From a virus, in the IMG/VR virus record IMGVR_UViG_3300015263_000944, positions 43,395 to 107,394 of that record: a DNA stretch of 64,000 nt; one strand, 5' to 3'. Shown here one piece after another: positions 2,249 through 58,630 of the stretch. Position numbers and translations under genes: made by a program. Numbering within the stretch: the stretch's first letter is position 1; the number at the start of each line of letters is the position of its first letter. The notes below the pieces were generated by a model. The model worked only from the letters and a program-made list of their open reading frames with translations. It was not told the DNA's origin and searched no databases.

Positions 2249-3541
2249 TTATGCGGCTTCTCCCCGTGACTCGCAGACGATCTTCTTCTCGCCTTTGACC
2301 ACAGACTCATCGATCACAATCTTCGCCGCTTTCGGGTTGGATGGCAAGTCGAAGTGAATGTCAGTCATCAGATCTTCCACCACACTCCGAAGAGCACGAG
2401 CCCCAGTGCCGAACTTGTGAGCCTTCTCGGCGATCATTCGCAGAGCACCATCTGTGAACTCCAGATCGAGCCCACTGTAGGCCAGCTTCTTTTCCTCTTG
2501 CTTGATGAGAGCGTTCTTCGGCTCGCTGAGCACCTGCACCAGATCGTCCACACTAAGTTCTTCGAGTGTGGCGATCACCGGCAGACGACCACACAATTCG
2601 GGGATCAGCCCGAACTCCATCAGATCGTGGTGGGTACATTGGGCCAGCAACTCGTTCTTCTCTTCGTTCTTCTCTTTGGTGGGTTGCTGTCCGAAGCCCA
2701 TCGCCCGGCGATTCATTCGCTTGCCGATGATGTCTTCCAGACCGTTGAATGCCCCACCGACGATGAAGAGGATGTTGGTGGTATCGATCTGGATGTATTG
2801 CTGCTCGGGGTGCTTTCTCCCACCCTGCGGAGGAACATTGGAGACGGTGCCTTCGATCATCTTCAGCAAGCTCTGTTGCACGCCTTCGCCACTCACGTCA
2901 CGAGTGATGCTGACGTTGCCACCAGTACGACCAATCTTGTCGATTTCGTCGATGTAGATGATTCCAGACTGGGCGGCGTCGATGTCGAAATCGGCAGCGA
3001 CGAGAAGTTTGAGGAGCAAATTTTCCACATCTTCGCCAACGTACCCAGCTTCGGTGAGGACGGTGGCATCACCGATGGCGAACGGAACTTGGAGCTTCTC
3101 GGCGAGGGAGCGGGCCAGCAGAGTCTTGCCGCTCCCTGTCGGGCCGATCAACACGATGTTCGACTTTTCGATTTCCACATCCTGCAACTCCTTACGCTTG
3201 ATGAGCGGAGTTGTATGGCCGTACCGCAACTCGCCGTCGATGAGACGCCGATAATGGTTGATGACCTGAACTGAGAGCTTCCGCTTCGCTGCATTCTGAC
3301 GGATCACATACTCGTCGAGATGCTCGTAAACATCTCGGGGCGAGGGGAGAGATTCCATCTGAGAGATGAGCGTAGGCTGACGAGACTTGCGTTCCTCTTG
3401 CTCGATGGCTTCATCGCAATTGGCGATGCAGTTCTTGCAAATGTACACACGGGCCTCATCGCCGTAGGCTTTGCCTTCGACAAGGGGGCCGACCTTGTTC
3501 TTGTCGCCCCCACAAAATCCACACTTGGGTCGTGTCTTCGC
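2249..3541 (-). CDS. clpX: ATP-dependent Clp protease ATP-binding subunit ClpX
   Basis: N-terminal C4 zinc finger (CGFCGG...CKNC). Walker A GPTGSGKT, and the typical ClpX sequence through the C-terminus. GAGGAGG lies 5 nt before the ATG at 3541; the longer ORF start at 3571 is less likely. Confidence 0.9.
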
Positions 3542-3601
3542 CATAAGTTCCTCCTCTGCTGGGCTTTTCATTGCCGTCTTCCCGTCAACATCATTATAGA
3601 G

Positions 3602-3607
3602 AGTTTC
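3602..3607 (-). promoter_or_regulatory. Possible -10 element (TATAAT on minus strand) upstream of clpX
   Basis: Perfect TATAAT about 60 nt upstream of the clpX ATG. No convincing -35 was found. Confidence 0.2.
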
Positions 3608-3674
3608 TCATCTACATTTTACGGCTAATCTGAGGCAGTGTAAAGCAATTCTCCGGTAGATGTTAGGGTGAAGT

Positions 3675-4493
3675 TTACCGTGGGTGGCGGTTATCCGTTT
3701 CCTGATCCAGCCTCTCAGAAAGTTCGTCGAATTCCTCTCTACTTTGTATTGACACCAATCGTCGCTGAATGTCGGAAATCATTCGAGCCGACGCCTCAAC
3801 ATCGTGGGGCGAGACTGCTGGCGGCTCATCGCCGGTCACTGTTCGGTATAGATCCTGAAGCTGACGATGCCCCTTGGCCGCTCGAATCTCTTGTTCCGCA
3901 GCCATTGCAATGAATGCTCCGATCACAACCAACATGAAGCGACCAGACATGATTCCCACAATAGCGAATCCAATACAGCCCACTTGACCAATTCGACCAG
4001 CGACAACTGTTGCCCGCTCATGATTCTTCCATATCATCGACAGAAGAGACCTCAACACTCTACCACCATCCATTGGAAAAATTGGCAATAGGTTGAAAAG
4101 CAGAATCGCAATGTTGATATAACAAAGCGTGGCAAGGACTGTGTGGACACTTGCCGAGAACCACAATGGGGCAATCAAGAGAGCGTTGACCAGCGGTCCA
4201 GCAAGAGCAACAACAAACTCTTGTACCGGCTCAACAGGCAGTCGCATTCGGGCCGCACCACCGAACGGATAGAGGGTGATGCTATGGGGCTCGATCCCAT
4301 ATCTTTGTGCCGCAATGCAGTGTCCAAATTCATGCAGCAGGACAATGAAGAAAGCCCCGGCATAAACGGCGGCGAGATTCCCGCCACCAGCAATCAACAC
4401 AAAAAGAAAAAGAAGTACCCAACTCCAATGCAGAGTTACGGGGACACGAAACCACCTACCCAGTGGAATGTTGAGATAGTTCAGAAATTTCAT
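3675..4493 (-). CDS. Site-2 protease family (peptidase M50) zinc metalloprotease
   Basis: HEFGH motif inside a TM helix. Multiple TM segments and a C-terminal soluble domain. Confidence 0.75.
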   Translation of the reverse strand: MKFLNYLNIPLGRWFRVPVTLHWSWVLLFLFVLIAGGGNLAAVYAGAFFIVLLHEFGHCIAAQRYGIEPHSITLYPFGGAARMRLPVEPVQEFVVALAGPLVNALLIAPLWFSASVHTVLATLCYINIAILLFNLLPIFPMDGGRVLRSLLSMIWKNHERATVVAGRIGQVGCIGFAIVGIMSGRFMLVVIGAFIAMAAEQEIRAAKGHRQLQDLYRTVTGDEPPAVSPHDVEASARMISDIQRRLVSIQSREEFDELSERLDQETDNRHPR

Positions 4494-11003: not shown

Positions 11004-11882
11004 TTATATGGCATTTTTCGACAACAGTTGAGCTTTTAGCGTGTTTCGCATCAGCATCGCCACCGTCATTGGGCCTACGCCACCGGGAACCGGGGTGATG
11101 GCGGACACCTTCTGTGAGACAGCATCGAAGTCTACATCGCCTACGATCTTTCGAGTGCCGGGAATGCGGTTGATCCCCACGTCAACCACCACGGCACCTT
11201 CCGGCACCATGTCAGCAGTGAGGAAATTGGGCTGGCCGACTGCGACCACGATGATGTCTGAAGAAAGACAGACTTCTTTGAGACGATCTGGGGGCGTGTG
11301 ATCGTGACACATGAAGACCGTGGCATTCGCTTGCCCATGGTCTTGAACGAGAAGTGCAGACAGAGGCTTCCCGACAATATCAGATCGATTGATGATCGCC
11401 ACTTTCTTCCCCGCAATTCCAATGCCGCTACGGGTCAGTAACTCCTGAATACCCTGTGGCGTGCAGGGAACAAATCGAGGACGACCTTGTAGGAGCAGTC
11501 CAACATTCGTAGGCGAAAAGACATCAACGTCTTTGTGAGGGTCGATTCTATCGAAAACCGCTTGTGCGTCAAGACACTTTGGCAACGGCAGTTGAACCAA
11601 GACCCCATGCACAGCCGGATCGTTGTTGAGATAATCGATGGTTGCCAGAAGATGGTCCATTGGCTGGGACCAATTCTCAATGCCTCCTTCGAACGGCTTC
11701 AACAGAAAACTGATGATGCCGCACTCCTCACATGCCTGTCTCTTCTTTGAGACATAAATCTCACTTGCTGGATCTTCAGAGCACAACACCACAGCGAGAC
11801 ATGGTGGCGTCATTCCAATTTTTGCTTTGATCTCTGCACGCACTTCGGCGGCGACAGCGTTCCCGTCAAGAAGTTGGGCCAT
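11004..11882 (-). CDS. folD: Bifunctional methylenetetrahydrofolate dehydrogenase/cyclohydrolase FolD
   Basis: MAQLLDGNAVAAEVRAEIK N-terminus, GKKVAIINRSDIVGKPLSALL and PGGVGPMT motifs. Confidence 0.85.
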   Translation of the reverse strand: MAQLLDGNAVAAEVRAEIKAKIGMTPPCLAVVLCSEDPASEIYVSKKRQACEECGIISFLLKPFEGGIENWSQPMDHLLATIDYLNNDPAVHGVLVQLPLPKCLDAQAVFDRIDPHKDVDVFSPTNVGLLLQGRPRFVPCTPQGIQELLTRSGIGIAGKKVAIINRSDIVGKPLSALLVQDHGQANATVFMCHDHTPPDRLKEVCLSSDIIVVAVGQPNFLTADMVPEGAVVVDVGINRIPGTRKIVGDVDFDAVSQKVSAITPVPGGVGPMTVAMLMRNTLKAQLLSKNAI

Positions 11883-12414
11883 CGATCTCCCTCTCAATCA
11901 GTTCCATCATGGAATCGAAGTGATCGACACAGACGTAATGCAGATCGCCATGCAGGTGTCTGCTAAGATGTCCCTTCAGGAAATTGTCGAAGCTCACAGC
12001 CTCGTCGTAATCCTGATAGCGACCCTTTTCGTTGTACTCGACCGTGCGTTCAATGAAGAGATTGAGAGGTGGAAAGTCTCGGTCGAACTGCTGACAGATG
12101 CGAATCAGATCGTCGGCACATTGAAAATCGTAGAGTGCCGAGTAAGCAGTATTCATCAGCAACGGAGAGTCCGTCACGATGGTTTGCACGTTTCTCAGAA
12201 TGACATCTTCTGACTTCAATTGCTTGGCGAAGACGTACAACTGGTCGTATGAGGTCGGTTTGCGGCCCTCATGTGCCCAAGTTTTTATGTATTCGGGAAT
12301 ATGTTCTACGTCGTATCCCCGAATCTTCAATTCGGCGAACGTGCGAGCGGCCAAGGTGCTCTTCCCGCTACCCGGCCCAGCATAGAAATTCACTCTTCTA
12401 ATTGGTGAGGACAT
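11866..12414 (-). CDS. P-loop NTPase / nucleotide kinase-like protein
   Basis: Walker A GPGSGKST near the N-terminus; 182 aa. Confidence 0.6.
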   Translation of the reverse strand: MSSPIRRVNFYAGPGSGKSTLAARTFAELKIRGYDVEHIPEYIKTWAHEGRKPTSYDQLYVFAKQLKSEDVILRNVQTIVTDSPLLMNTAYSALYDFQCADDLIRICQQFDRDFPPLNLFIERTVEYNEKGRYQDYDEAVSFDNFLKGHLSRHLHGDLHYVCVDHFDSMMELIEREIDGPTS

Positions 12415-13351: not shown

Positions 13352-13618
13352 ATGACCGGCAGCTATTCAGATCAGTTGTTGGAACAGCGTAATAACGAGC
13401 GTCGAGCCACCCGTCCGTGGCTGGAATGCTACATCTGCCAAACACCGCCCACATTTGAGGACGTGAAGGCCCACTTCGCTGAACAGGGGATGCTCGTCAC
13501 ACGGGCGGACTACCAAGCGGTGTGCGAGAAGATGTGCGTGAAGCCACGCTGGGCGCACGAAAAAACCCCGGAGCAACCGAAGTCACTCCGGGGTGAGTCC
13601 GAGGGGACCGACGTTTAG
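13352..13618 (+). CDS. Hypothetical small protein
   Basis: GAGAGGAG RBS 4 nt before the ATG at 13352; 89 aa. Its 3' end contains a hairpin that works as a minus-strand terminator, which lowers confidence. Confidence 0.35.
   Translation: MTGSYSDQLLEQRNNERRATRPWLECYICQTPPTFEDVKAHFAEQGMLVTRADYQAVCEKMCVKPRWAHEKTPEQPKSLRGESEGTDV
13558..13593 (-). terminator. Rho-independent terminator for the ParB-like gene
   Basis: Hairpin CCCCGGAG/CTCCGGGG followed on the minus strand by TTTTTTCG. Confidence 0.5.
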
Positions 13619-15132
13619 TCCTCGTCATCGTACCCCATCCGATCCAACTCAGCGACCGGATTGTAGTCCTCGTCGTCGTCGTCATCGAAGTCGTCCCCGA
13701 ACTCTTCATCGAGTTCGGCGTCGAGTTCGGCGTCGGTTTCGAATTCCTCTTCGTCTTCAACATCAACAGCATCCCATCGGCCCAGATCGATCTGGATCGA
13801 GCGGATGATGTCGAGTCCGGGGCTGTGACGCCCTTCGAGGATCGCCGTGCAGGTTCGCCGCACAGCCATCACCAGATCAGCAGGAATGTTTTCGCCGTAA
13901 TCTGGGTCTTCGGTCTCGCCATCCTCCAGAGCCGCCAGAGAATCGATGATCTCTTGAATCTGCTCCTTCGGCATCATCTTCGCCTTCTTCGGCGACAGAT
14001 TGGCAGCGGCAGCCCCACGAGCGACGTGGCTCTGCTTGATCGTGCCCTTCTCGTCTTCGACACGATCCTTCTTCTCCTTCGCCTTCTTCTGTCGAGTCTG
14101 GGCAGACCGGACAGTGCGACGAGCCTTCTTGGCAGTTGTCTCGTCATCGTTCTGCTCAGCCTTCTTGGCCTCGGCGAGAGCAAGCTCCTCCTCGTCTTCG
14201 GCCTGCTCCAGTTCGTCCTGCGCCTCTTCCAAGCGACGGGCAGTATCTTCCTCTTCGGCCTTCTTCGTCGCCTCGAAAAGTTTCTGACGATCTTCGGGCT
14301 TGAAGCCCATGATGTGGACGGCAACGTGACGGGTCATGGTGCCGTCGAGCAGTTTCTTGTAGGCTTCCTTCGGCAACGCCTCTTGGAAGTTGAGTGTCTG
14401 GGAAACCCACGTCTCATTGGTTCCCAACATGTCGGCGATCTCGCCCTGCTTCATTCCCATCCGCTGGAGACGCTCGACGAGGGCGATCTCTTCTCGGGTT
14501 TCCAACGACTGGCTCTTGTCGTTCTCCGTGAACGCCAAACGCAAGGCACGCTCATCGGTGCAGTCGTAGGCCACCCGGCACGGAATCTGATGGTAGAGCT
14601 TGCTGCCGGGAATGGTGGGAAAGACTTCCTCGGCGGCGACATCACGCTGTTCTTCGCCCAGCGTGAGTCCATCGGCGAGAAAGAACTGGATCGCAAGGCT
14701 GGCCGTCTTGTGAGATACGACCTTGGCGAAGCGACCTTTGTGCAGCACGACGGCCCCGGCACGATACTTCTTCGGGGCTTCAGCGTCTTCGTCGAAACAC
14801 GGGTAATCGTTCTCGACGATCTTCAGGAGGGTTCGCAGCCGCCGCTCACCAGCAATCAACTGGACAGCGACAACCTTCCCCTTCTCAGTCAGGGCACGGA
14901 CTTGCGGGGGTTGCTGCAAGCCGTCCGTCCGAATCGAGAGCAACAACTCTTGCATCTCCGCAGGCGTGAAGCTCTCGATGCTGCGGGGGTTGTAGAAAAG
15001 TTGCTCAGTCTCTCGGCCCTTGGCGGGCCGCTCCACAATCTCAATCTGATCAAGAGGGACGGAAGGATATTTCCCCTCGCCCGTGATCTTGATGGACTTG
15101 GACTTGGTGGTTGTTGTCATTGCGGTTTGCAT
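13615..15132 (-). CDS. ParB-like nuclease domain protein with acidic C-terminal tail
   Basis: ParB N-terminal box LIAGERRLRT. Long charged coiled-coil region. Poly-D/E C-terminus. Confidence 0.8.
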   Translation of the reverse strand: MQTAMTTTTKSKSIKITGEGKYPSVPLDQIEIVERPAKGRETEQLFYNPRSIESFTPAEMQELLLSIRTDGLQQPPQVRALTEKGKVVAVQLIAGERRLRTLLKIVENDYPCFDEDAEAPKKYRAGAVVLHKGRFAKVVSHKTASLAIQFFLADGLTLGEEQRDVAAEEVFPTIPGSKLYHQIPCRVAYDCTDERALRLAFTENDKSQSLETREEIALVERLQRMGMKQGEIADMLGTNETWVSQTLNFQEALPKEAYKKLLDGTMTRHVAVHIMGFKPEDRQKLFEATKKAEEEDTARRLEEAQDELEQAEDEEELALAEAKKAEQNDDETTAKKARRTVRSAQTRQKKAKEKKDRVEDEKGTIKQSHVARGAAAANLSPKKAKMMPKEQIQEIIDSLAALEDGETEDPDYGENIPADLVMAVRRTCTAILEGRHSPGLDIIRSIQIDLGRWDAVDVEDEEEFETDAELDAELDEEFGDDFDDDDDEDYNPVAELDRMGYDDED

Positions 15133-15326: not shown

Positions 15327-15941
15327 TCAAAAACGGTAATTCTTGTGTGGGCGGCGACAGCGGACCTGCCAATCGACCTCGTATGGGGATGCTCCCCAGT
15401 TGTCGAGTGTGGAGTCCTTCTTACGAAGAAGCAGCCCCTCGATCAAGGGCAGTTTGACGAAACTGCGGAAGTGAGCACTGAACTCGCTATCACCATGCGT
15501 TGACAACCAAATGCTATCACTCACTTTGAGAGCAGCATCCGGGAAGTCTGGGTGAGGCTCACTGGGCTGGCCGCACACATTGAAGAGCATGGCGAGACGA
15601 GTCAACTGATCGACACCGATGAGGTAATCGGTGATTTGAAGAGCGTCGAAAAGGACCAGAGCGTCCTTTCCGTTATGGCGGACCAGTTCGCCATCGAGGT
15701 AGTGCGTCCCACTCGGAAGTTTGAGACGCAAAAGTTCATCCCTGATCTGGGAGAACTTTCCTGCGGGATGCCACTTGTGATGGCGGTTCCCGAGATCAGC
15801 CTTGTTTCCATCTACGACGGGGATACAACGGTCGCCGTCGAACTTCGGTTGCCAAATGAACACGCCCTGACTTTCCATGGAATCAAGCTGTTCGGGCTTG
15901 ATCTTGCTGGTCGGTCTGGGCGGAAAAATGTATCGGGGCAT
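15327..15941 (-). CDS. ATP-dependent DNA/RNA ligase nucleotidyltransferase domain protein (minimal, no OB domain)
   Basis: Ligase motif I KFDGDR, motif III YLDGELV, motif IIIa LVLFDAL and motif IV IEGLLLRK. Only 204 aa. Confidence 0.6.
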   Translation of the reverse strand: MPRYIFPPRPTSKIKPEQLDSMESQGVFIWQPKFDGDRCIPVVDGNKADLGNRHHKWHPAGKFSQIRDELLRLKLPSGTHYLDGELVRHNGKDALVLFDALQITDYLIGVDQLTRLAMLFNVCGQPSEPHPDFPDAALKVSDSIWLSTHGDSEFSAHFRSFVKLPLIEGLLLRKKDSTLDNWGASPYEVDWQVRCRRPHKNYRF

Positions 15942-15982
15942 GATGTTCCTCCATGCCCCACATCATATGGCAGTTTTGCGGG

Positions 15983-16675
15983 TCAGTTAAAGCTTTCCGC
16001 ATCAAGTACAAATTTTGTGTCACAATCGTTGCAAGTGACGTTGAGCGGCTTCTGTCCATCAGGACGCCGACCAGACCGGATGATCACCGGAGGTTCGCAC
16101 GACTGACAGACATACTTCAATTGGTACTCTTTGTGCGGCTTCGACTCGTAGGACCGTCGCAACGCCCGCTGGAAGTTCTGGAACTCCTGTTGCGACCACG
16201 AAATCTCTCGATAGATTTTTCGACGCAACTTCACCGCAGACGTTTCGGGGAACCTCACCTTGTCCGCCTGAACCACCTCGCTGTGATTGGCGTCGGAGAA
16301 AGTGATCCCCCAGCCTCGTGCCGAACTAGCAACAACAATGAGACCGAGACGGAGTGCCTTCTCACAGAAGTATCGGTTGTGATACTGATTCTGCGTAAAG
16401 TCCGGGACGCCCTGCTTGGCATGATAGACGTGAATCATCACATGCAGCAGATCATCCAGCACCTCTGTCTTCGATGCGTTGATGAAGCTTGCCCCGATCT
16501 CTATCGTGTCGTCTCCCGTATAATGGAAGATGCCTTTGCGGCTCAAGTTGGGCGTAAACTCGATCTCATCATTCAGTTCACCGTTAAAGAGGCCCTTGTT
16601 CAGAGTTTCAAATGCTCTGGTCAAATGACCTTTCATGCAGTCACCTTTTCTGTCATCCGTGGGTGTGGACTCCAT
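15983..16675 (-). CDS. Hypothetical protein with C-terminal zinc ribbon
   Basis: C-terminal CQSC...CNDC pair. No HExxH motif, so a SprT-like call is not supported. Confidence 0.45.
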   Translation of the reverse strand: MESTPTDDRKGDCMKGHLTRAFETLNKGLFNGELNDEIEFTPNLSRKGIFHYTGDDTIEIGASFINASKTEVLDDLLHVMIHVYHAKQGVPDFTQNQYHNRYFCEKALRLGLIVVASSARGWGITFSDANHSEVVQADKVRFPETSAVKLRRKIYREISWSQQEFQNFQRALRRSYESKPHKEYQLKYVCQSCEPPVIIRSGRRPDGQKPLNVTCNDCDTKFVLDAESFN

Positions 16676-17196
16676 GCCTTTTCAGGCAGTAGGACGCTCT
16701 CCAACGAAAGCTCCCTGAATTTGTTCGAGGCTCCTCGCAGACTGGGAGAGCACTGGTTGGGGTCGAAGACTACCTCAACCTCCACGCCCTTTCGACGAAT
16801 CTCTTGGGCCACCTGTGCCATCTCATATGCTCCGGTCAGAACCACGAAGGAATCGTAGTATCCCTGCTGGAGCAACTGGGACATGTCCCAAGTGATCTGG
16901 CAGGTTATCGCAGAATTGATTTCGTCATCCAGTTCCGGGTGGCCCGCTCGGCTCACTGGATTCCGCATGATCCTGACATCGAAACCAGCCAGTCGCATCG
17001 AATCATAAAGCCGATGTCTTGAGTCTAAATTGCGGTTGGTCTCTCCGCAATAGAAAATCGACACCACTGCCTCTCGATCACCAGCCAACCAATTCTTGAG
17101 CAGCTTGAAGTTGACCTTGCGGCCATTCAAGATTCGAGAGAGAGCGTTGTTGTCTACGAAGACGCAGATCTTTTCTGATCGCTGGCCTTCACCCAT
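16633..17196 (-). CDS. NYN/LabA-like ribonuclease domain protein
   Basis: ICVFVDNNAL start, then FVVLTGAYEMA and VEVVF, consistent with the NYN fold. RBS AAAGGGAGG. Confidence 0.7.
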   Translation of the reverse strand: MGEGQRSEKICVFVDNNALSRILNGRKVNFKLLKNWLAGDREAVVSIFYCGETNRNLDSRHRLYDSMRLAGFDVRIMRNPVSRAGHPELDDEINSAITCQITWDMSQLLQQGYYDSFVVLTGAYEMAQVAQEIRRKGVEVEVVFDPNQCSPSLRGASNKFRELSLESVLLPEKAWSPHPRMTEKVTA

Positions 17197-17255
17197 TTGT
17201 CCAGCCTCCCTTTCGGAAGCTCCATTGATCTGTGAAATCGTCCATCTGACCCGAT

Positions 17256-17284
17256 ATCGTACTCAATCTTTTTTGGTTTTACAA
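17256..17284 (-). promoter_or_regulatory. Putative sigma70-like promoter for the NYN gene
   Basis: On the minus strand: TTGTAA, 17-nt spacer, TACGAT. It overlaps an A/T palindrome TTTTGGTT-ttac-AACCAAAA. Confidence 0.3.
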
Positions 17285-17400
17285 CCAAAATTGACCGACG
17301 AGGGCGATTTCCCTGAACCAAACCGCCTAAAATTTCGTCTCGACAAGTTGGCTCCTATCCCGCAGAATACAATTTTTGGACAGAAAGTGCAGGGAAGCTC

Positions 17401-17892
17401 ATGATTTACACCGCCGCCGTGCTCAAGGAAAATTCCCGCCATCTGCTGCGATGGCTGGCTAAGGCTCTTACTACGCTGGAAGAGGACGGGTTTCGGTTCC
17501 AAACCTCTCAGGCGGAACTCCTGCCCCATCACATGACGCTAAATCTGGGAGCCTTCGACGACTCCCTGAACGACCCCAGCGTACTTGGCGGCTTCGCCGA
17601 AATCCATGTGGATCGACTCCGGTTCAACTATACACTGGGCGTGTGCGCCGCACCAGTCCTCAGAGCGAGAGTCGAGTCGATTGACGGTGATGGGAAATGG
17701 TTGGACCTGAAAACCATCAATGATTTCCCGCACATCACAACGTGCCTCAAGCCGGGCGTCTCGGCCAAAACCAGCAATGAAATGCTGAGCCTGCCACGGC
17801 AACAGAATGAAGAGGTCGTCTTCGATCAGACGTATGTGCTAGAGGCGTGGGTGCAAGAAGTGCGACCACAGAAGACCTACCTCGGCGCATAA
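17401..17892 (+). CDS. 2H phosphoesterase (LigT-like cyclic phosphodiesterase) family protein
   Basis: Two HxT motifs (HHMTL and PHITT) at the spacing typical of the 2H superfamily; 163 aa. Confidence 0.65.
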   Translation: MIYTAAVLKENSRHLLRWLAKALTTLEEDGFRFQTSQAELLPHHMTLNLGAFDDSLNDPSVLGGFAEIHVDRLRFNYTLGVCAAPVLRARVESIDGDGKWLDLKTINDFPHITTCLKPGVSAKTSNEMLSLPRQQNEEVVFDQTYVLEAWVQEVRPQKTYLGA

Positions 17893-17965: not shown

Positions 17966-18199
17966 TTAGTAGAGACGCTGGTTGCAAACCGTGATTGCTG
18001 CAACCCATGCTTCCGACCGTGTGCTACAAAGCTGGTTCAATTTCGGGCAACTCACCCGAAACTTCCGCCATGTTGCACATGTGTAAATCGGCTGGGCCAT
18101 CGCATCTTCACCCTTCAAACAGTAAAGCTGAATGTTAGGGGTATCGTCTGCAAATGTGCCCTTGCACTTATTCGCTGAAACAGGTGTAACTGCTGCCAT
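17966..18199 (-). CDS. Small Cys-rich protein
   Basis: GGGAGG RBS 4 nt before the ATG at 18199. 77 aa with six Cys residues. Confidence 0.4.
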   Translation of the reverse strand: MAAVTPVSANKCKGTFADDTPNIQLYCLKGEDAMAQPIYTCATWRKFRVSCPKLNQLCSTRSEAWVAAITVCNQRLY

Positions 18200-36288: not shown

Positions 36289-36848
36289 TTGTATGCCACG
36301 AACCCAAATTTGCTTTCATCCGTAATCCGAAAACGGCGTCCCGATCCGTAACAAAAATCCTCCAAGACAATTTCACGGTTTGGGATTGTTCCGATTACCA
36401 CGGCTGGATCTTGCCCGAGGCGTGTCAGGATTACTTCACATTCATGTTTGTGAGGAATCCATTCAGTCGCACTGTCTCGGCATGGTTGCACGTCTGCGAA
36501 GATCGCATCAGAGTGGGAAGAGCCTCCTCCCCATCGCTGGCTCAGTTTGTTGATTACGGCGGATTTGGGCTCCACAACGCAAGGAACTATTTCAAGCAAT
36601 CGGATTTGCTGAAATGGATCGAAGCCGATACCAAAAGTAAGGTGACAATCTTAAAGTACGAGAATTTGGCAGAAGAGATTCGGAATCTCCCATTCATGCC
36701 AGAAGGAATCGAGTTGCCGCACATTGGCAACTCTGGAAAAGACTGGATGTCTTTTTACACGCCCGAGATCGAGGAAAGAGTTCGCCAAGCTCTGGCAGAG
36801 GATTTTGAAACCTTCGGATATCACGACAGGATTTCAATTTCCATGTGA
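36285..36848 (+). CDS. Carbohydrate sulfotransferase-like (Sulfotransfer_2 type)
   Basis: FAFIRNPKTASRS (5'-PSB) and FMFVRNPFSRTVSAW (3'-PB RDPxxRxxSA-like) motifs. Confidence 0.65.
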   Translation: MIVCHEPKFAFIRNPKTASRSVTKILQDNFTVWDCSDYHGWILPEACQDYFTFMFVRNPFSRTVSAWLHVCEDRIRVGRASSPSLAQFVDYGGFGLHNARNYFKQSDLLKWIEADTKSKVTILKYENLAEEIRNLPFMPEGIELPHIGNSGKDWMSFYTPEIEERVRQALAEDFETFGYHDRISISM

Positions 36849-36892
36849 ACCAAATCGTCGATCCGAGGCTCTGTTATCTCAAGGAGGAGATT

Positions 36893-37822
36893 ATGTCGAG
36901 CACAACGCAACAACTCATGGAAAAAGGGCTCATCAAGGATGCCCCGCCTTTCCTCAAAACCAACGTCCATTACGAGACGATCATGGGCTCACACGCCTAT
37001 GGTGTCGCCGATACGAGTGTGCGTGACAAGATCCCGGACTATGACGTGTACGGGTTCGCTATTCCTCCCAAGGAATACATCTTCAAGCACCTGACAGGAT
37101 GGATTCCGGGTTTTGGCCCCGAGCCTCCGGGCTTCGAGCAGTGGCAGCGTCATCACATCATGGATCAGGACGCCATTGCTGGGAAGGGCAAGGAATGGGA
37201 CTTGAGCATCTTCAGCATCGTGAAGTTCTTCGAATTGTGTCGGGACAACAACCCCAACATGATCGACAGCCTCTTCACGCCCGAGAACTGTGTGATTCAC
37301 TGCACGATGATCGGGCGGATGGTGCGTGACAACCGCAAACTCTTCTTGTCCAAGAGGGCATGGAAGAAGTTTCGTGGATATGCTCACAGCCAGTTGAAGA
37401 AGATGAACGACAAGAACCCCATCGGAAAGCGTAAGGAGATCATCGAGAAGCACGGCTTCGACGTGAAGTTTGCTTACCACATCATCCGTCTCTTGGACGA
37501 AGTGGAGCAAGTCATGTTGGAAGGCGACATCGACCTCCAGCGTGCCCGAGAACCGATGAAGGCCATCCGTCGAGGCGACTGGACGGCAGATGAGGTTCGC
37601 AACTGGGCGATGGAAAAAGAGCGAGTTCTGGAAGCGGTTTACTCTGAATGTAAGCTTCCTACAGAGCCTCCCGTCGAGCCTCTGCGGCAACTTCTGATGA
37701 ACTGTCTGGAGGAGCACTACGGATCGCTTCAGGACTGCGTGGCCCAAACCGGATGGGCGGAAAATTCGCTCATGCAGATTGACGAAATCCTCAACAGAAT
37801 TCGTGCCAGTCTGTACAAGTAA
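36893..37822 (+). CDS. Pol-beta superfamily nucleotidyltransferase domain protein
   Basis: AAGGAGGAG RBS before the ATG at 36893. GS...(13)...DYD pattern (MGSHAYGVADTSVRDKIPDYDV). Confidence 0.5.
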   Translation: MSSTTQQLMEKGLIKDAPPFLKTNVHYETIMGSHAYGVADTSVRDKIPDYDVYGFAIPPKEYIFKHLTGWIPGFGPEPPGFEQWQRHHIMDQDAIAGKGKEWDLSIFSIVKFFELCRDNNPNMIDSLFTPENCVIHCTMIGRMVRDNRKLFLSKRAWKKFRGYAHSQLKKMNDKNPIGKRKEIIEKHGFDVKFAYHIIRLLDEVEQVMLEGDIDLQRAREPMKAIRRGDWTADEVRNWAMEKERVLEAVYSECKLPTEPPVEPLRQLLMNCLEEHYGSLQDCVAQTGWAENSLMQIDEILNRIRASLYK

Positions 37823-39928: not shown

Positions 39929-40860
39929 GAGATCACATCTATTATCACCAATGGTCCGAACTAGGCGATGGTCCACCATATTGTAATATGAGGTGCCCCA
40001 CCATCGTATCCATCGCAACACTTCGTGGCGTCAACCCAAATGTGCCCATCACCGTCTTGGACAAAAGCGAGACGCCTCAAGATTGGGGAGAATTTCCAGA
40101 GAAGCTAAACTTCGATGTAGCTCACGATCCGACGTTCTCGTGTGAACGATACAAAAATGTAGTCGCAGGATACAAACATCTGTCTCGTTTCCCAGACTTG
40201 GTGTCCTACACCAAAGACAAAGACGAACGAGTTGTGTATGTGGACGCCGATGTCTTCTGGTTTAGAGATCCCTTCCCACTGGCAGTTACATCGAGCAAAT
40301 TGTGTATCGATGGTTGGAACACGGGGTTCTTCTACTACGAGGCACGCTATGCCAACAAATGGTTTGATCCATTTGAGGCATACATGAAATCCGCCATCTA
40401 TTCAGAAGAGTTGCGGGATGTGCTTAAACAACACGTCAATTACGATGATTGGTATGTGGTGTTTGACGAACAGATCATCACATATCTCAAGAAGACAAAC
40501 CCACAACTCATTGAAATCATTCCAGATTGTGAGCACATCACCGGCAGTCGATTGGAAGAGCTTGATCCAGACACAGCGAAAATGCTTCACTTCAATGGCA
40601 TTATGGTGCATGACAACTATCATCGCACACGACATGCCAGAGGTCTAGCAGGCATCATCATCCAAGAGTTCTATGACAACATCTGTAAATCCCTCGACGC
40701 ATCCGACATCGAGAAGATTTTCACGCCACATGCTATGAGACTCTATGGGAGCAAACGATTCTCGCTCTTTAGGAATCTGGCTCGATTGTTAGAAACGAAA
40801 ACGGACAGGCTTTATCGTCTCGATAAATGCCTGTCCGTTCCACGACTCGATCTTATTTGA
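39925..40860 (+). CDS. Nucleotide-diphospho-sugar transferase family protein
   Basis: VVYVDADVFWFRDP DxD block. ATGA coupling with the upstream gene. Confidence 0.55.
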   Translation: MRDHIYYHQWSELGDGPPYCNMRCPTIVSIATLRGVNPNVPITVLDKSETPQDWGEFPEKLNFDVAHDPTFSCERYKNVVAGYKHLSRFPDLVSYTKDKDERVVYVDADVFWFRDPFPLAVTSSKLCIDGWNTGFFYYEARYANKWFDPFEAYMKSAIYSEELRDVLKQHVNYDDWYVVFDEQIITYLKKTNPQLIEIIPDCEHITGSRLEELDPDTAKMLHFNGIMVHDNYHRTRHARGLAGIIIQEFYDNICKSLDASDIEKIFTPHAMRLYGSKRFSLFRNLARLLETKTDRLYRLDKCLSVPRLDLI

Positions 40861-41622
40861 ACAGCAAGTCGAACTCACCCTTCATGATGCCCTTGACGTT
40901 TCCCGTCTTGGTGTCCAGCCGATGATCGACAACTCGGCTTTCCATGAAGTTGTAGGTGCGGATTTTCCCGCTCCGGTGGCCTCCCTGCAACTGTTCTTTC
41001 CTGTAGGCTGCGTACTCCGAATCAGCGGCCTCTTTGGCTTGTTCGTAGACACGGCCTTGAATGATCCGACGTGCTTCTCGCACATTGCTGTGGAAATCTC
41101 TGCCGTTAATAACAACCTTGATCCCTGTGGGGATGTGGGTCATTCGGCAGCCCGACATCGTTTTGTTCTGATGCTGTCCACCTTTACCGCCCAGATTGAC
41201 GGCCTCGATTTCCAGATCATTGTCGGCGATCTTCACATCCACTTCTGGCGGCAGTGGTAAAACTGCAACCGAGACGAAAGATGTCTGCTTACGGCCCTTG
41301 CTTTCCGTAGGTGGAATACGCTGGACACAGTGTTTGCCCGGCTCATGCCGGAACGCACGACCTGCGCCTTTGCCCCAGATACGGGCCATCATATGGCCGA
41401 AATCAGAGTGAATCAGTTCGGATTTCAGGTTCAGTGAGCGAGAATACCGTGCATAGGCTGCGAATAATTCGTCAACAAAGATCTTGCTGTCGTCGCCGCC
41501 CTCGCCGTGTCGGACCTCTAAGATGATCTCGTCGGCGTCAAAGAAACCTCCGCTCCTTCAGATCGGTAGCGGTTGGGGAGTTAAAGACACCTCCCGGCGT
41601 TTTTCTTGTGCTTCTTACCCAT
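40853..41622 (-). CDS. Peptide chain release factor 2-like protein lacking domain 1 (PrfH-like), expressed via programmed +1 frameshifting
   Basis: GGQ motif (GGKGGQHQNKT). RF2-like blocks LEVRHGEGG, HCVQRIPPTESKGRKQTSF and KIRTYNF. This frame is closed 6 codons upstream of the CTTTGAC site. The ATG at 41622 has an AAGGAGA RBS in another frame. Confidence 0.7.
41537..41556 (-). other. prfB-type +1 frameshift site 2 (GGAGG-TTT-CTT TGA C)
   Basis: SD-like GGAGG, a 3-nt spacer, then CUU UGA C. Homology to RF2 starts exactly at the codon after the shift. Confidence 0.6.
41580..41599 (-). other. Putative +1 frameshift site 1 (GGGAGG-TGT-CTT TAA C) at codon 13-14 of the ATG-initiated frame
   Basis: Same architecture as the E. 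coli prfB site, but with UAA. Confidence 0.4.
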
Positions 41623-53592: not shown

Positions 53593-53663
53593 GTACCCCC
53601 TAGAGGAGTCGAACCTCTTCTAAAACTTTAGGAAAGTCTTGTGCTTCCGTCACACTCAGGGGG
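53593..53663 (-). tRNA. tRNA-Arg (anticodon CCU)
   Basis: Manual cloverleaf fold. Acceptor GCCCCCT/AGGGGGT. D arm GTGT-GACGGAA-GCAC. Anticodon stem AGACT/AGTTT with loop TTCCTAA. T arm AGAGG-TTCGACT-CCTCT. Discriminator A. 71 nt without CCA. Confidence 0.65.
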
Positions 53664-53712
53664 CTCGGAATGTTGCATTGTAACATATCTAGCCGAAACA
53701 CTAAATATCTCT

Positions 53713-56700
53713 ATGAGCCGCAAACCCACATGGCCGTTTGGACCCAAAATCGTCAGCAATCAACACAACGGATTGGTTGGTTGGTGGCCGCTTGCGCCCA
53801 CAGGGGGATCTCTCGTCTATGATTTGGAACGAGGAAACACAGGCACAATCACGAATGGCGATCCTGCAATACTCTGGGTCGCCGATGGAGAACGTGGCGG
53901 CAACGTCTTACAACTCGATGGAACAGGTTATGTAAGTGCTGGCGATGTTAATCTCGTTGATGATCTTGGAGCCAGCGGCGAACTCACATGGTCCATCTGG
54001 GTAAGACTGGATAGTGTTGGCGCAAGCGAGGCAATCATCGACAAAGCCGAAAGCAGCCCCGGAGAACCCGGCCTCACCTTCTGGTGGGATGTATCAAACG
54101 GTTGGAGGGTTGACATTGATGGATCGCAATCAGCATACACTTCAACCACAGGATATACAGCGAACACTTGGTATCATCTCGTTGTTGTCTTCAATGGCAA
54201 CCTGACTGGAGATGCCAATCGTCTAAAGATCTATGTCGATGGAGTAAACCAATCACTGACTTTTTTCGGCACAATCCCTGCGACAATTTCTTCAAGCAGT
54301 GCTCCTCTTCTGTTTGGTCAATTCAACGGAGTAGTTGGACAAACCTTGAATGGTGCGTTAGACGATATTCGGCTTTATTCCCGTGCTCTCACAAGTCCAG
54401 AAGTTGTTCAACTTTGGAACCCCCAAACACGTTGGGAACTCTACGATACAACTGATGTATCTCCTGCCATTCTGCTTGGTGCTCAGGCCACCGCCACCTA
54501 TAACGAAACAGCGACAGGCGGTGCTGTTTGTGGCGGCACAGCAGATGTCTTCGTGCAGAGAGATGAGACGGCCACAGGCGGCGTCGTGGTCGCTGGCAAA
54601 GCACTCTTGGTCAGCATCTTCTCAGATGCCGATAAGAGCCCCGGAATCACATGGAACACAAACATCCGCTTCTCTGTGAAAGACGGACAATTGCTCGTTG
54701 CCGTGTTTGCCACCGATAACGATTCATCTGCTGATGGAAACACAAATCTCCATGAGACAATTGTGGTCGGCGGTCAGGCAATGACCAAAGCCAGAGAATA
54801 CACCAACAGTGAAGGGGCTGTTGATGCAGGGGCAACTGTCTCCATCTGGTACTTGCTACCTATCGGCGATATTGAAAGTGGTGCCACAGTTGCCACATCG
54901 TTGAACTCTGGCCGAACTGCAAAAGCCATCACTGGTTTCGTCATCGATATTGGTCGAGGTCTAAGAATCTCCCTCGATGGCACAGCGGATGCCGAAGGCA
55001 CGGGTGCTGATCCCGGAGCCATCAGTGCTACAGGTATCGAGACCGGAGACCACCTCTGGATTCGAGGCACGGCTCTTGAGGATGCGAATGAAACAATTGG
55101 ATGGATGACGCCAACGAGCTTCTGGGAGAAGTTCGAGGACAATGGTAGTACAGGCAATCCGGCGTCCAGCAACATCTCTGTCCGTGGCGAATGGAAATTC
55201 TCAACAGGCACATCATCAGGAACGAGTGATCCGACTGTTGAAAGTGGGGCCGACAACGCAACCTCTTTGATTGGTCTCTATATCGACCCCCTAAAGACAT
55301 GGAATCAATTTGTCAGTGGTGGCACACTTGCTGGTGGCTCGGCACTCGTCAGTTATACCGCCAATCAAGACACCACGGGTGGTGCTGTCGCTGGCGGATC
55401 AGCAACAACCAACTTCGCCGATGTCATCGATGCCAGCGGAGGTGTGCTGGTCGCAGGCTCGGCAACCACAACCTTCATCGATCAGATTGACATGACGGGC
55501 GGTGTAGTCGTCGGTGGCGGCGCACTCATTCTCGGTGGCAACGACATTATCGCTGCTGGCGGTGTCGTCGCTGGTGGTTCTGCAACACAGAACTTCATCG
55601 ATTACATCGACGCCACGGGTGGTGTGGTCGTCGGCGGAAACGCCCTGCTTGGGGAAACTATTGACGCCACTGGCGGGGTTGTGGTCGGCGGCAGTGCCAC
55701 AGTGGCCTTCATCGATCAGATTGACACCACGGGCGGCGTAGTCGTCGCTGGCACGATCACCGATAACATCATCGCAAATGTAGTTTCCACGGGCGGCGTG
55801 GTTGTGGCCGGTGTGACCACAGAGAACATTGTCATCAATACCGATGCCACAGGTGGTGTGGTCGTTGCGGGCAATGCAACTTTTGGAACGAGCGGCGACA
55901 TCAATGGCACGGGCGGGGCTGTCGCTGGTGGTGCAGCCGATGTCGCATACACAGCCAACGTCACAGCAACAGGCGGCGTAGTCATCGCCGGAATGACGAT
56001 CATCCTCGGAGACATCTATGCTGAAGGCGGTGTTCTTGTTGGGGGTGCAGCCGATGTCACCTTCGCCGATCAGATCGATGCAACTGGTGGGGCCGTCGCT
56101 GGCGGCACAGCCGATGTGAACGTCCAAAGAGATGAAGTTGCCGCAGGCGGTGTGGTCGTTGCTGGCAACTCTATCGAATCATTCTCGATGAACATCTCGC
56201 CTCAAGGCGGCGTGGTTGTTGGTGGAGTTCACGTCCAAGACGCCACTTTCTCGGTCATCGCCACAGGCGGTGTGGTCTGCAATGGTCACGCCCCTCTTAA
56301 CTTCGAATTGGATGCCACAGGTGGTGTCGTTGTTGGCGGTAGTGCAGTCGGTCAGACAGTGTTTGTGGATGGAGCAGGCGGTGTCTCTGTCGGCGGATCG
56401 GCCATCGTAGAAGATGACAAGATCTTTCTCATCGTTGAGTGCCCAGATGGCTTGTATGTTTGCGAGCCGAAAGGAGAAGACGCCTACTGCCTGCGATACA
56501 TCGATTACATCAGCTATGGTTCTCCTGTCTTCAAGGACATCAGCAAGACGCTGGCAAAAATGCCGCCAATCATTCTGTGCCGACAAGGCATCAAGAACGA
56601 TCTCGTTGTCGAAGAAGGCGTCCCGGTTGGCGGACGCTCGCAAACAGAAGAACTTGCCGAGATCGGTATGGGCCTCACAGAATTCGTGATGCTCTCAACG

Positions 56701-57099
56701 GTTGAGGCCAATGTGGGAGCATTCAAAGTCAAAGCGGCCAGCCGACTTGATCTCGGCAATTACTCTCCTGTCAAATCCACAAAGAAGATCGAGGGAACTG
56801 CGACAACACCCCAAGTTCAAGATCCCGTGCTGAGTAATCTGGCACTGAAGGCAGAGTTCAGACGTGAATACAAAGACTTCAAGAAACCAGTCGTAACTCG
56901 GGCCGCTAAACAGCCAACCGGGAACATCGCCAAGAATACGCCCCAGATGGCTCGTCTGAAGAGAGCCAACGAAGCAATCCGTCAAAAGCGACATGCTCAT
57001 GTGCCAGAAGAAGTGAGAAGTCTGGGATATTCAAGAGGCGAATTGAGGAAAGCCCCAAGTAAACCAGACAAACCAAAGATCAAACAAACAGCCTTGTGA
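53713..57099 (+). CDS. Large LamG-domain protein with Gly/Val-rich tandem repeats (putative fibre/adhesin)
   Basis: N-terminal laminin-G/ConA-like region (WSIWVRLDS, NTWYHLVVVFNG, LKIYVDGV). About 370 aa of repeats of the form IDxIDATGGVVVGGxA. Basic C-terminus. Start at 53713 avoids the tRNA. Confidence 0.7.
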   Translation: MSRKPTWPFGPKIVSNQHNGLVGWWPLAPTGGSLVYDLERGNTGTITNGDPAILWVADGERGGNVLQLDGTGYVSAGDVNLVDDLGASGELTWSIWVRLDSVGASEAIIDKAESSPGEPGLTFWWDVSNGWRVDIDGSQSAYTSTTGYTANTWYHLVVVFNGNLTGDANRLKIYVDGVNQSLTFFGTIPATISSSSAPLLFGQFNGVVGQTLNGALDDIRLYSRALTSPEVVQLWNPQTRWELYDTTDVSPAILLGAQATATYNETATGGAVCGGTADVFVQRDETATGGVVVAGKALLVSIFSDADKSPGITWNTNIRFSVKDGQLLVAVFATDNDSSADGNTNLHETIVVGGQAMTKAREYTNSEGAVDAGATVSIWYLLPIGDIESGATVATSLNSGRTAKAITGFVIDIGRGLRISLDGTADAEGTGADPGAISATGIETGDHLWIRGTALEDANETIGWMTPTSFWEKFEDNGSTGNPASSNISVRGEWKFSTGTSSGTSDPTVESGADNATSLIGLYIDPLKTWNQFVSGGTLAGGSALVSYTANQDTTGGAVAGGSATTNFADVIDASGGVLVAGSATTTFIDQIDMTGGVVVGGGALILGGNDIIAAGGVVAGGSATQNFIDYIDATGGVVVGGNALLGETIDATGGVVVGGSATVAFIDQIDTTGGVVVAGTITDNIIANVVSTGGVVVAGVTTENIVINTDATGGVVVAGNATFGTSGDINGTGGAVAGGAADVAYTANVTATGGVVIAGMTIILGDIYAEGGVLVGGAADVTFADQIDATGGAVAGGTADVNVQRDEVAAGGVVVAGNSIESFSMNISPQGGVVVGGVHVQDATFSVIATGGVVCNGHAPLNFELDATGGVVVGGSAVGQTVFVDGAGGVSVGGSAIVEDDKIFLIVECPDGLYVCEPKGEDAYCLRYIDYISYGSPVFKDISKTLAKMPPIILCRQGIKNDLVVEEGVPVGGRSQTEELAEIGMGLTEFVMLSTVEANVGAFKVKAASRLDLGNYSPVKSTKKIEGTATTPQVQDPVLSNLALKAEFRREYKDFKKPVVTRAAKQPTGNIAKNTPQMARLKRANEAIRQKRHAHVPEEVRSLGYSRGELRKAPSKPDKPKIKQTAL
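55300..56420 (+). repeat. In-frame tandem repeats of roughly 57-63 bp inside the LamG protein gene
   Basis: Repeated gatgccacnggnggngtngtngtnggcgg units encoding (D/T)ATGGVVV(A/G)G. Confidence 0.5.
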
Positions 57100-57929: not shown

Positions 57930-58496
57930 CTACTGACTCCAACCGAAGTCTTCTGTGGTTTCGACCCCAGCACGAATGTCTTCTCGAACCTTCGTGCAAA
58001 CTTCTCCAAGCCAGTTGGTCCCATCCCACAAAGCTCGATTGTGGACTCCGGGGTGATGTTCCTTCAGACCGATTCCCCAGATTCGGTCCCACGGGCTGGC
58101 TTCGACCAATGTGCCTTCCAATGAAAGCAGGGCGTCCTTGAGGCCGGGGTTCTGAGTGAACTTCGCATAGTTCCCCCGGTAAACGATGTCCCGTGCAACG
58201 GCATTCCATGTGTCTGCATCAAAATTGCGAACCATGCGACCCAAAGCTTTTTGGTCTCTGGGGTTGTCCGCCTTCATGATCTGCTGAGCAGCATCTTCGT
58301 CTCCGAAGAGACGTGCCTTTTCGGCCATCATGTATTGTTCAGTGCAATTGTAGGTCACGCCGTCTACTTCAAAACGGCATGGCAACCACTGAGAACAAAT
58401 ACCAGCGATGTTGTCGCCTGTAACAGCAACAATCACATCGTCTTGATTGTGAACCAACTCAACATGTCCACCAAAAAATGGCGTAAACTTTTCCAT
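57930..58496 (-). CDS. NADAR (YbiA-like) domain protein
   Basis: MEKFTPFFGGH, SQW, EQYMMAEKARLF, GNYAKFTQN and EASPWDRIWGIG blocks. AGGAGG RBS 4 nt before the ATG at 58496. Confidence 0.7.
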   Translation of the reverse strand: MEKFTPFFGGHVELVHNQDDVIVAVTGDNIAGICSQWLPCRFEVDGVTYNCTEQYMMAEKARLFGDEDAAQQIMKADNPRDQKALGRMVRNFDADTWNAVARDIVYRGNYAKFTQNPGLKDALLSLEGTLVEASPWDRIWGIGLKEHHPGVHNRALWDGTNWLGEVCTKVREDIRAGVETTEDFGWSQ

Positions 58497-58630
58497 CGTT
58501 CCTCCTAAAGTATGTGGCCCAGCGGGGAGTGGGACGGAACTCAACCCGCTGGGTGCGCCTGCCACTTCGACCGGCGTTGAAGTGGTGGATGGTTTGCCGG
58601 AAACCAAACCCGGCGCAGTCTCCATGTATT

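Follow-up and report, generated by a model that had tools for sequence, protein, structure and literature searches.

A phage family of single-domain ATP-dependent ligase homologues and the gene neighbourhood of one member

All DNA ligases are stated to share a universal core of a nucleotidyltransferase (NTase) and an oligonucleotide-binding (OB) domain, and entries that hold the NTase domain only have been treated as partial sequences (PMC8455567). RNA repair genes have already been described in jumbo phages (PMC7824862, PMC9503650), where 2H phosphoesterase domains are common and have been proposed to act with tRNA ligases (PMC9503650). Here we analyse a 64,000-nucleotide stretch of viral DNA (IMG/VR record IMGVR_UViG_3300015263_000944, positions 43,395 to 107,394; hereafter the window, whose numbering is used throughout). 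Within positions 15327-17892 it holds four small open reading frames (ORFs), encoding a ligase-like protein, a SprT-like protein with a zinc ribbon, a NYN-domain protein and a 2H phosphoesterase. All four lie where an earlier note on this DNA had placed them; that note had proposed that ligase, NYN protein and 2H protein form a possible RNA repair or processing trio. Judged by its sequence, and as far as tools and literature show, the 204-amino-acid (aa) ligase-like protein belongs to a large, phage-only and uncharacterised family of single-domain ATP-dependent ligase homologues. The four small nucleic-acid genes most likely do not constitute one obligate machine or fixed RNA-repair unit.

The ligase-like gene occupies 15327-15941 on the minus strand. 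Its product is a single NTase domain with motifs I (KFDGDR), III (LDGELV), IIIa (LFDAL), IV (EGLLLRK) and V (WQVRCRR), of which motif IV follows the ligase-type pattern EGLxxK/R. Only about 10 residues follow motif V, so that the protein has neither an OB domain nor motif VI. Scores against curated models lie under the cut-offs, with 19.9 bits against 26.2 for PF01068 and 25.8 against 227.75 for TIGR02779. The 35 close homologues all measure 199-217 aa, bar one fragment. An alignment of 22 sequences revealed K33, G36, R38, LDGE, D99, EGL, WQxRxR and an N-terminal PPRP segment to be invariant; the R-x-R of motif V in this close family is K-x-R in the wider family. When 1.84 billion representative proteins were searched with a profile, 1470 matches were returned, 500 of them at E <= 1e-10, and the best 150 representatives are almost all 190-240 aa long and aligned end to end. 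The missing OB domain of the family is real and not an artefact.

The AlphaFold model of the ligase-like protein comprises one domain and has a predicted local distance difference test score (pLDDT) of 94.6 and a predicted TM-score (pTM) of 0.91. Its best Foldseek neighbours in the PDB and in BFVD are adenylation domains of ATP-dependent DNA ligases (TM-scores of 0.65-0.74), followed by mRNA capping enzymes, and the top 50 matches contain no RNA ligase in either library. A profile search of PDB sequences yielded DNA ligase 1, LigD and capping enzymes, again with no RNA ligase, and no solved ligase exceeds 20% identity to the protein. In both sequence and fold, the protein resembles the adenylation domains of DNA ligases and not RNA ligases. 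The original description of a 204-aa ligase NTase domain without an OB domain is thus borne out by the motifs, the 35 homologues, the single-domain model and the DNA-ligase matches in Foldseek. An exact-match scan with one family-specific peptide pattern gave no hit in 185,579 cellular species, each represented by one genome, and we found no published description of a single-domain ligase family of this kind.

Members of the family occur in very large phage genomes. Contigs that encode a homologue of the ligase reach 693 kb and keep the gene order over more than 20 kb, and tblastn located the family in five 'uncultured phage' records that represent four distinct genomes of 595, 635, 642 and 735 kb. 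At the DNA level no similarity was seen between the window and deposited phages. In the complete 595 kb relative LR756511, the single-domain protein is the sole match of the ligase profile, and the same profile finds canonical ligases in other loci. Hand-written motif patterns detected no LigA signature and no canonical RtcB, Pnkp or Rnl2 in LR756511, nor any canonical RtcB, Pnkp, Rnl2 or LigA in the window. A short PF09414-like RNA ligase candidate is encoded at 144045-144788 of LR756511 on the minus strand; it scores 23.7 bits against a cut-off of 27 and carries KKYDGTQIR, EGVICK and CKIK. Because such candidates coexist with the single-domain ligase in the same genomes, the two are probably not redundant. 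Close to this candidate we also noted a gene whose product has an N-terminus that looks Macro-like by eye.

The interval that holds the four genes is bounded by conserved core genes: on one side a glycosyltransferase gene and that of a conserved, cysteine-rich 77-aa protein (17966-18199, minus strand), on the other the gene of a ParB-like protein with ParB_N, helix-turn-helix (HTH) and acidic tail regions (13615-15132, minus strand). To compare relatives, we tabulated the 23 syntenic loci in which the whole interval from the 77-aa gene to ParB is visible. The ligase is present in 21 of these, the 2H gene in 19, the SprT-like gene in 18 and the NYN gene in 13, and every partial combination was seen. 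All pairwise associations among the four genes are null (Fisher p 0.13 to 1.0, not corrected for phylogeny). The ligase occurs without 2H in four loci (L006, L008, L040 and Mfi45_UG), 2H and ligase stand alone in two (L007 and L035), and 2H and SprT-like genes are found with no ligase between SprT and ParB in two others (L014 and L015). Of the 18 loci with a SprT-like gene, 16 have it immediately upstream of the ligase. The ParB-like gene is the next gene downstream of the ligase locus in every syntenic relative with a contig long enough to show it. Adjacency within the syntenic clade says little about function, because unrelated flanking genes are at least equally conserved.

In several relatives (L012:3666-4154, L023:4003-4707, L032:3880-4590 and L034:3881-4681) the slot additionally carries, between 2H and NYN, a gene for a signal-peptide/coiled-coil protein, and hence it accepts insertions. 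HTH and HNH-like genes are inserted in the slot of L003. In L040 the place of 2H is taken by a 365-aa protein (2791-3888, minus strand) with a GSFNPxHxGH nucleotidyltransferase motif, which looks like a PncC/NMN-adenylyltransferase enzyme of NAD salvage.

To look beyond the syntenic clade, scans with two subsets of an alignment of distant members were utilised to gather 126 IMG/VR phage loci that carry the ligase family. No homologue of 2H, NYN or SprT turned up within 6 kb of the ligase in any of the 126, a result obtained with family-specific profiles that could miss very distant members. In LR756511 a distance of 209 kb separates the 2H homologue from the ligase. A PrfH-like release factor is encoded 1.5 kb from this 2H homologue, and a Sir2 gene 3 kb from it; these two are about 5 kb apart, and an RlaP gene lies 6 kb from the ligase. 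A lack of co-occurrence in relatives had been named beforehand as grounds for refuting the proposed trio, and such a lack was largely seen, in the null result of the 23 loci, in the 126 further loci and in the 209 kb separation in LR756511.

What does recur beside the ligase elsewhere is of several kinds. In several smaller phages the family sits beside DNA replication genes (sliding clamp, SNF2 helicase, gp32-type single-stranded DNA-binding protein and endonuclease VII). In 57 of 131 loci (for example L165:5061-5750 and L009:5067-5792) the ligase is preceded on its own strand by the gene of a protein that we call c1 (about 229 aa; family range 200-240 aa; N-terminal LFxKAK), and the loci that carry it have otherwise unrelated neighbours. 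No match to c1 was found in the PDB, Pfam or PHROG. The protein is a candidate functional partner of the single-domain ligase; a remote homology of c1 to the SprT-like protein was considered and rejected (hhalign probability 0.2%). A small Pol-beta-type nucleotidyltransferase (GS...DxD) is found near the ligase in 19 loci, immediately upstream in 16, and a Nudix hydrolase downstream of it in 39. We also asked whether this Pol-beta-type protein is RlaP and discarded the idea, as it has a weak DUF6036 match alone and none to PF10127.

On the minus strand of the window, the ORF coordinates give the transcription order NYN, SprT-like, ligase, ParB-like. The NYN and SprT-like genes share a 4 bp overlap, the gap from the SprT-like gene to the ligase is 41 bp, and 194 bp of non-coding DNA separate the ligase from the ParB-like gene. 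Directly 3' of the latter lies a strong intrinsic-terminator-like hairpin with a 13 bp stem and a T run (13565-13594, minus strand), and no comparable site was seen between NYN and ParB. The ParB-like gene is probably co-transcribed with the ligase locus. It was rejected as a functional partner of the ligase, since their adjacency is restricted to the syntenic clade and absent in the 126 other loci. The 2H gene is divergent from the NYN, SprT-like and ligase genes, and the 204 bp intergenic spacer between it and NYN (17197-17400) contains weak promoter-like matches on the plus strand. A second hairpin, with a 10-bp stem and a T-rich run (15934-15960, minus strand), overlaps the start codon of the ligase (ATG at 15941); attenuation of translation or transcription could be its role, or it may have arisen by chance.

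The 2H phosphoesterase (17401-17892, plus strand; 163 aa) carries two HxT motifs, H44-M-T46 and H111-I-T113, followed by S125-N126. Across 17 homologues PHHMT, H(I/V)T and SN are invariant, the second motif reading H111-I/V-T113. The protein matches the PF08302 family (tRNA_lig_CPD) with 24.1 bits at a cut-off of 23, and the homologue in LR756511 reaches 35.8 bits. Its sole sequence match in the PDB is the Candida Trl1 kinase-CPD (E 0.11). In the predicted structure (pLDDT 90), Foldseek ranks 1-47 are all taken by the CNPase catalytic domain, with TM-scores of 0.51-0.61. Sequence and model both indicate that the protein is of the CNPase/Trl1-CPD type rather than LigT-like; of the first description as a LigT-like 2H protein with two HxT motifs, the 2H assignment and both motifs stand, and the likeness to LigT does not. 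Its family and fold lead us to expect that the protein opens 2',3'-cyclic phosphates.

For the two remaining proteins, the domains are recognisable and key catalytic residues are altered. The NYN/LabA-like protein (16633-17196, minus strand; 187 aa) scores 53 bits against PF01936 at a cut-off of 24.2, in agreement with the domain first assigned to it. It keeps the first catalytic Asp (FVDN), and GAYE replaces the GDxD motif, which speaks against its designation as a nuclease; an intact acidic motif (GDEDY) survives only in L037 and L040-L042, which are distant relatives. The SprT-like protein (15983-16636, minus strand; 217 aa as called in the public contig, with an ORF that reaches 16675) had been listed as a Zn-ribbon protein of unknown role. 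The C-terminal C4 zinc ribbon is there, and the protein additionally contains a SprT-like domain, with 19.6 bits against PF10263 (under the cut-off of 25.6) and a match to phrog_6361 at 3e-10. The His-x-x-x-His pattern and a downstream His are kept, and the Glu of HExxH is replaced by Val (HVMIH). The same Glu is lost in most relatives, and HEMVH is found only in L034, L037 and L040. Given this replacement, the SprT-like protein probably does not act as a protease here. On the evidence of these motifs, the likelier function of both the NYN and the SprT-like protein is binding, not nuclease or protease activity. The reverse is seen in the distant soil relatives L037-L040, in which the motif I Gly and motif III Glu of the ligase are gone (KFND[ST]R, DGGVM). 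The decay is reciprocal: the window lineage has an intact ligase and degenerate NYN and SprT-like proteins, and L037-L040 the opposite.

Several components of RNA and translation metabolism are scattered over the window. An RlaP-family nucleotidyltransferase ('RNA ligase-associating Pol-beta'; PF10127, 61 bits) is encoded at 36845-37822 on the plus strand, 19 kb from the ligase and surrounded by methyl-, sulfo- and glycosyltransferase genes. At 40853-41392 (minus strand) lies a 179-aa release-factor fragment, consisting of a PCRF end and an RF-1/GGQ domain, that looks PrfH-like. The window also encodes tRNA-Arg, ClpX, FolD, phosphoribosyl pyrophosphate synthetase and many glycosyl- and methyltransferases.

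The reading we favour, tentatively and with slightly less than even confidence, is that the locus is a variable slot in a huge phage of the Mahaphage type, filled by independent genes: a widespread core joining enzyme of the DNA-ligase type, an RNA-healing 2H protein and degenerate NYN and SprT-like proteins. The largest Mahaphages are predicted to infect Bacteroidetes (PMC7162821). From the observed domain identities, motif states and phyletic patterns we infer the following activities and substrates. The ligase would self-adenylylate on Lys33, move the AMP onto a 5'-phosphate end and join this end to a 3'-OH. Its substrate would most likely be nicked or broken DNA, so that the phage would possess a DNA-ligase-type enzyme of its own. 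This enzyme would share a transcript with the ParB-like gene and may act without an OB domain or borrow nucleic-acid binding from a partner. The 2H protein would open cyclic-phosphate RNA ends independently of the neighbouring ligase, as part of a dispersed toolkit for RNA and translation maintenance to which the RlaP protein, the PrfH-like release factor and the tRNA elsewhere in the window could belong. The NYN and SprT-like proteins, whose key catalytic residues are lost in the window lineage, may have taken on binding roles.

A number of observations weigh against this reading. To our knowledge, no DNA ligase works without an OB domain, and architectures poor in domains are found more typically among RNA ligases. 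The published rule of a universal NTase and OB core, under which such proteins have been set aside as partial sequences, counts against it too. One member of the wider family scores equally against the PHROG DNA-ligase and RNA-ligase profiles. The search of LR756511 for LigA, Rnl1/2 and RtcB relied on our own regular expressions and one profile. Several gene neighbourhoods are RNA-flavoured, including a recurrent order in jumbo phages of Pol-beta-type nucleotidyltransferase, single-domain ligase and Nudix (L059-L076 and L010, which is LR745206). A PF09414-like RNA ligase candidate lies 1-3 kb from the single-domain ligase in three loci (L093:4157-4762 and L116/L135:3151-3816), and in five loci a nearby protein has a CCA-adding-enzyme-type motif, recognised by eye and with no PHROG match. 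Within the 64 kb window no ligase other than the 204-aa protein is visible, and the window encodes RlaP, which is reported to be distributed in parallel with RNA ligases (PMC7824862). Finally, the four-gene set is the commonest state of the slot, with 11 of the 23 loci, and partial sets reach into deep-branching relatives (2H, NYN and ligase in L016; NYN, SprT and ligase in L040).

One alternative is an RNA repair module of a non-T4 type, which we hold to be unlikely although it is the strongest of those considered. Here host ribotoxins would leave 2',3'-cyclic phosphate and 5'-OH ends, the 2H protein would convert the former to 2'-phosphate and 3'-OH, a kinase encoded elsewhere would phosphorylate the 5' end, and the OB-less ligase would seal the RNA, following the logic of Trl1 with an NTase domain of the DNA-ligase type, with the NYN and SprT-like proteins as RNA-binding helpers. 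The match of the 2H protein to the fungal tRNA-ligase CPD above the cut-off, its CNPase fold and the published proposal that jumbo-phage 2H domains partner tRNA ligases (PMC9503650) fit this idea, as do the adjacency of all four genes in 11 of 23 relatives, the two loci with 2H and ligase alone, and RlaP, the PrfH-like factor and the tRNA in the window. The RNA-ligase-like, OB-less architecture, the lack of another visible ligase in the 64 kb and the neighbours of the ligase in other phages (Pol-beta nucleotidyltransferase, Nudix, RNA-ligase-like and, by motif, a putative CCA-adding-type protein) point the same way. However, the genes show no association in the 23 loci, none of the 126 others has the partner genes near the ligase, and LR756511 has its 2H gene far from the ligase and encodes a separate RNA-ligase candidate. 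About 60 window proteins scanned against Pfam include neither a polynucleotide 5'-kinase nor Tpt1. An AAA_28 P-loop protein encoded 3 kb away (11866-12414) was tried as the missing polynucleotide kinase and found no support, having no polynucleotide-kinase match and shikimate kinase as its best PDB hits (E ~0.1). The absence of RNA ligases from the top 50 structural neighbours of the ligase in both libraries and the lost catalytic motif of the NYN protein argue further against a module. Of the trio first proposed, then, the domain calls survive, the CPD/CNPase-type 2H protein fits RNA end healing and RlaP lies within reach, whereas gene linkage, the lack of a kinase or Tpt1 among the window proteins scanned, and the affinities of the ligase weigh against it.

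Improbable in our view is a split enzyme, in which the ligase is one subunit of a complex, not a step in a pathway. As it lacks the OB domain, the ligase would need a nucleic-acid clamp acting in trans, provided here by the SprT-like and NYN pseudo-enzymes or the ParB-like protein, and by c1 elsewhere. The tight packing of the NYN, SprT-like and ligase genes, the position of the SprT-like gene directly upstream of the ligase and the reciprocal decay of catalytic motifs between the window lineage and L037-L040 are in line with this hypothesis. So are the recurrence of c1 upstream of the ligase among otherwise unrelated neighbours and the stand-alone ligase DNA-binding domains known in jumbo phages (PMC7824862). 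Against it, several relatives and all 126 other loci carry the ligase but no NYN or SprT gene, and c1 and the SprT-like protein are unrelated. Equally doubtful is a combined reading, according to which the 204-aa protein stands for a very large, phage-restricted class that would contain the smallest polynucleotide ligases in nature, OB-less or partnered in trans, and would here have been recruited together with a CNPase-type 2H protein into Trl1-like RNA repair that relies on a catalytic domain of the DNA-ligase type.

An anti-defence island of unrelated genes, in which 2H degrades cyclic-oligonucleotide or 2'-5' signals in the manner of Acb1, NYN attacks host RNA and the ligase is incidental, is very improbable: the variable slot with its unrelated insertions (L012, L023, L032, L034 and L003) is typical of phage accessory hotspots, and Acb1 and a phage phosphodiesterase do occur among the fold matches of 2H, but Acb1 appears at rank 48 (TM-score 0.34, probability 0.77) behind the 47 CNPase matches, so that an Acb1-like nuclease directed against the cyclic-oligonucleotide-based antiphage signalling system (CBASS) was rejected, the sequence match is to the Trl1 CPD, tblastn of deposited phage records found no 2H homologue, and NYN lacks the catalytic GDxD.

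Other features of the window lie apart from the slot. From 18257 to 40860 runs a very long series of genes for glycosyltransferases, S-adenosylmethionine (SAM) methyltransferases, sulfotransferases, a radical SAM enzyme and a 2-oxoglutarate-Fe (2OG-Fe) oxygenase, which is kept in relatives and resembles a large glycan- or surface-modification island. At 57930-59290 (minus strand) a NADAR gene (166 bits) adjoins a histidine-phosphatase (His_Phos_1) gene, both components of NAD/ADP-ribose metabolism. The tRNA-Arg(CCU) gene (53593-53664, minus strand) overlaps the GTG start of a 1152-aa Laminin_G_3 protein encoded on the opposite strand (53641-57099, plus strand), and the true start of that ORF is probably further downstream.

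The new part of these observations is the single-domain ligase family, which departs from a defining feature of DNA ligases; the 2H and RNA-repair part is ordinary. Should the single-domain proteins be active, the textbook rule of NTase plus OB for every DNA ligase would be overturned, and a minimal ligase of about 200 aa, compared with 298 aa for the Chlorella virus enzyme, would be of interest for enzyme engineering. Activity would also identify the ligase of the largest known phages, as no other DNA-ligase-type gene was found in the complete 595 kb relative. If the proteins were RNA ligases instead, they would represent a new sealing enzyme in phage counter-defence against ribotoxins. A fixed module of ligase, NYN and 2H would matter less, since jumbo phages are already known as frequent carriers of 2H and RNA repair genes.

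Comparing the products of the slot with known systems reveals partial likenesses throughout. With the SprT, Spartan and Wss1 metalloproteases, the phage protein shares a SprT-like region and the His-x-x-x-His pattern with a further His downstream, and its C-terminal zinc ribbon recalls that of bacterial SprT; in contrast to them, it falls under the Pfam cut-off and lacks the Glu of HExxH. With the NYN/LabA nucleases there is a clear Pfam match and a common first Asp, whereas GDxD has become GAYE in the phage protein.

T4 Pnkp-Rnl1 tRNA repair has in common with this locus the concept of a phage healing and sealing pair, and the window adds a toolkit of RlaP, tRNA and a PrfH-like factor. However, neither Pnkp (kinase or DxDxT phosphatase) nor Rnl1 was found, healing would fall to the 2H protein, and linkage is not conserved. 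Closer to the 2H protein are CNPase and the fungal and plant Trl1 enzymes, which unite CPD, kinase and ligase and are followed by Tpt1: it shares PF08302 and the HxT...HxT...SN arrangement with the Candida Trl1 CPD, as well as the CNPase fold. The phage 2H is free-standing and measures 163 aa against about 210-250; the ligase next to it is of the DNA-ligase type, and its neighbourhood yielded neither a Trl1-type kinase nor an Rnl1-type ligase domain nor Tpt1.

The ligase itself resembles the RNA ligases T4 Rnl2/PF09414, Rnl1 and Rnl3-5 in having no DNA-ligase-type OB domain. The isolated NTase domain of Rnl2 self-adenylylates and seals a pre-adenylylated nick, and thus an NTase domain alone can carry out ligase chemistry. 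Unlike these enzymes, the phage protein has no RNA ligase among its top 50 fold matches in the PDB or BFVD or among its PDB-profile matches, and no extra domains, and a separate PF09414-like protein coexists with the single-domain family in LR756511, L093, L116 and L135. Its closest neighbours are the minimal ATP-dependent DNA ligases, namely the Chlorella virus ligase, bacterial Lig E and T7-type enzymes, with which it shares the covalent nucleotidyltransferase fold, KxDGxR and motifs III, IIIa, IV and V. Whereas those enzymes continue into an OB domain with motif VI (PMC8455567), the phage protein ends shortly past motif V, and an N-terminal YxYPPRP segment and a KNYxF tail are peculiar to its family.

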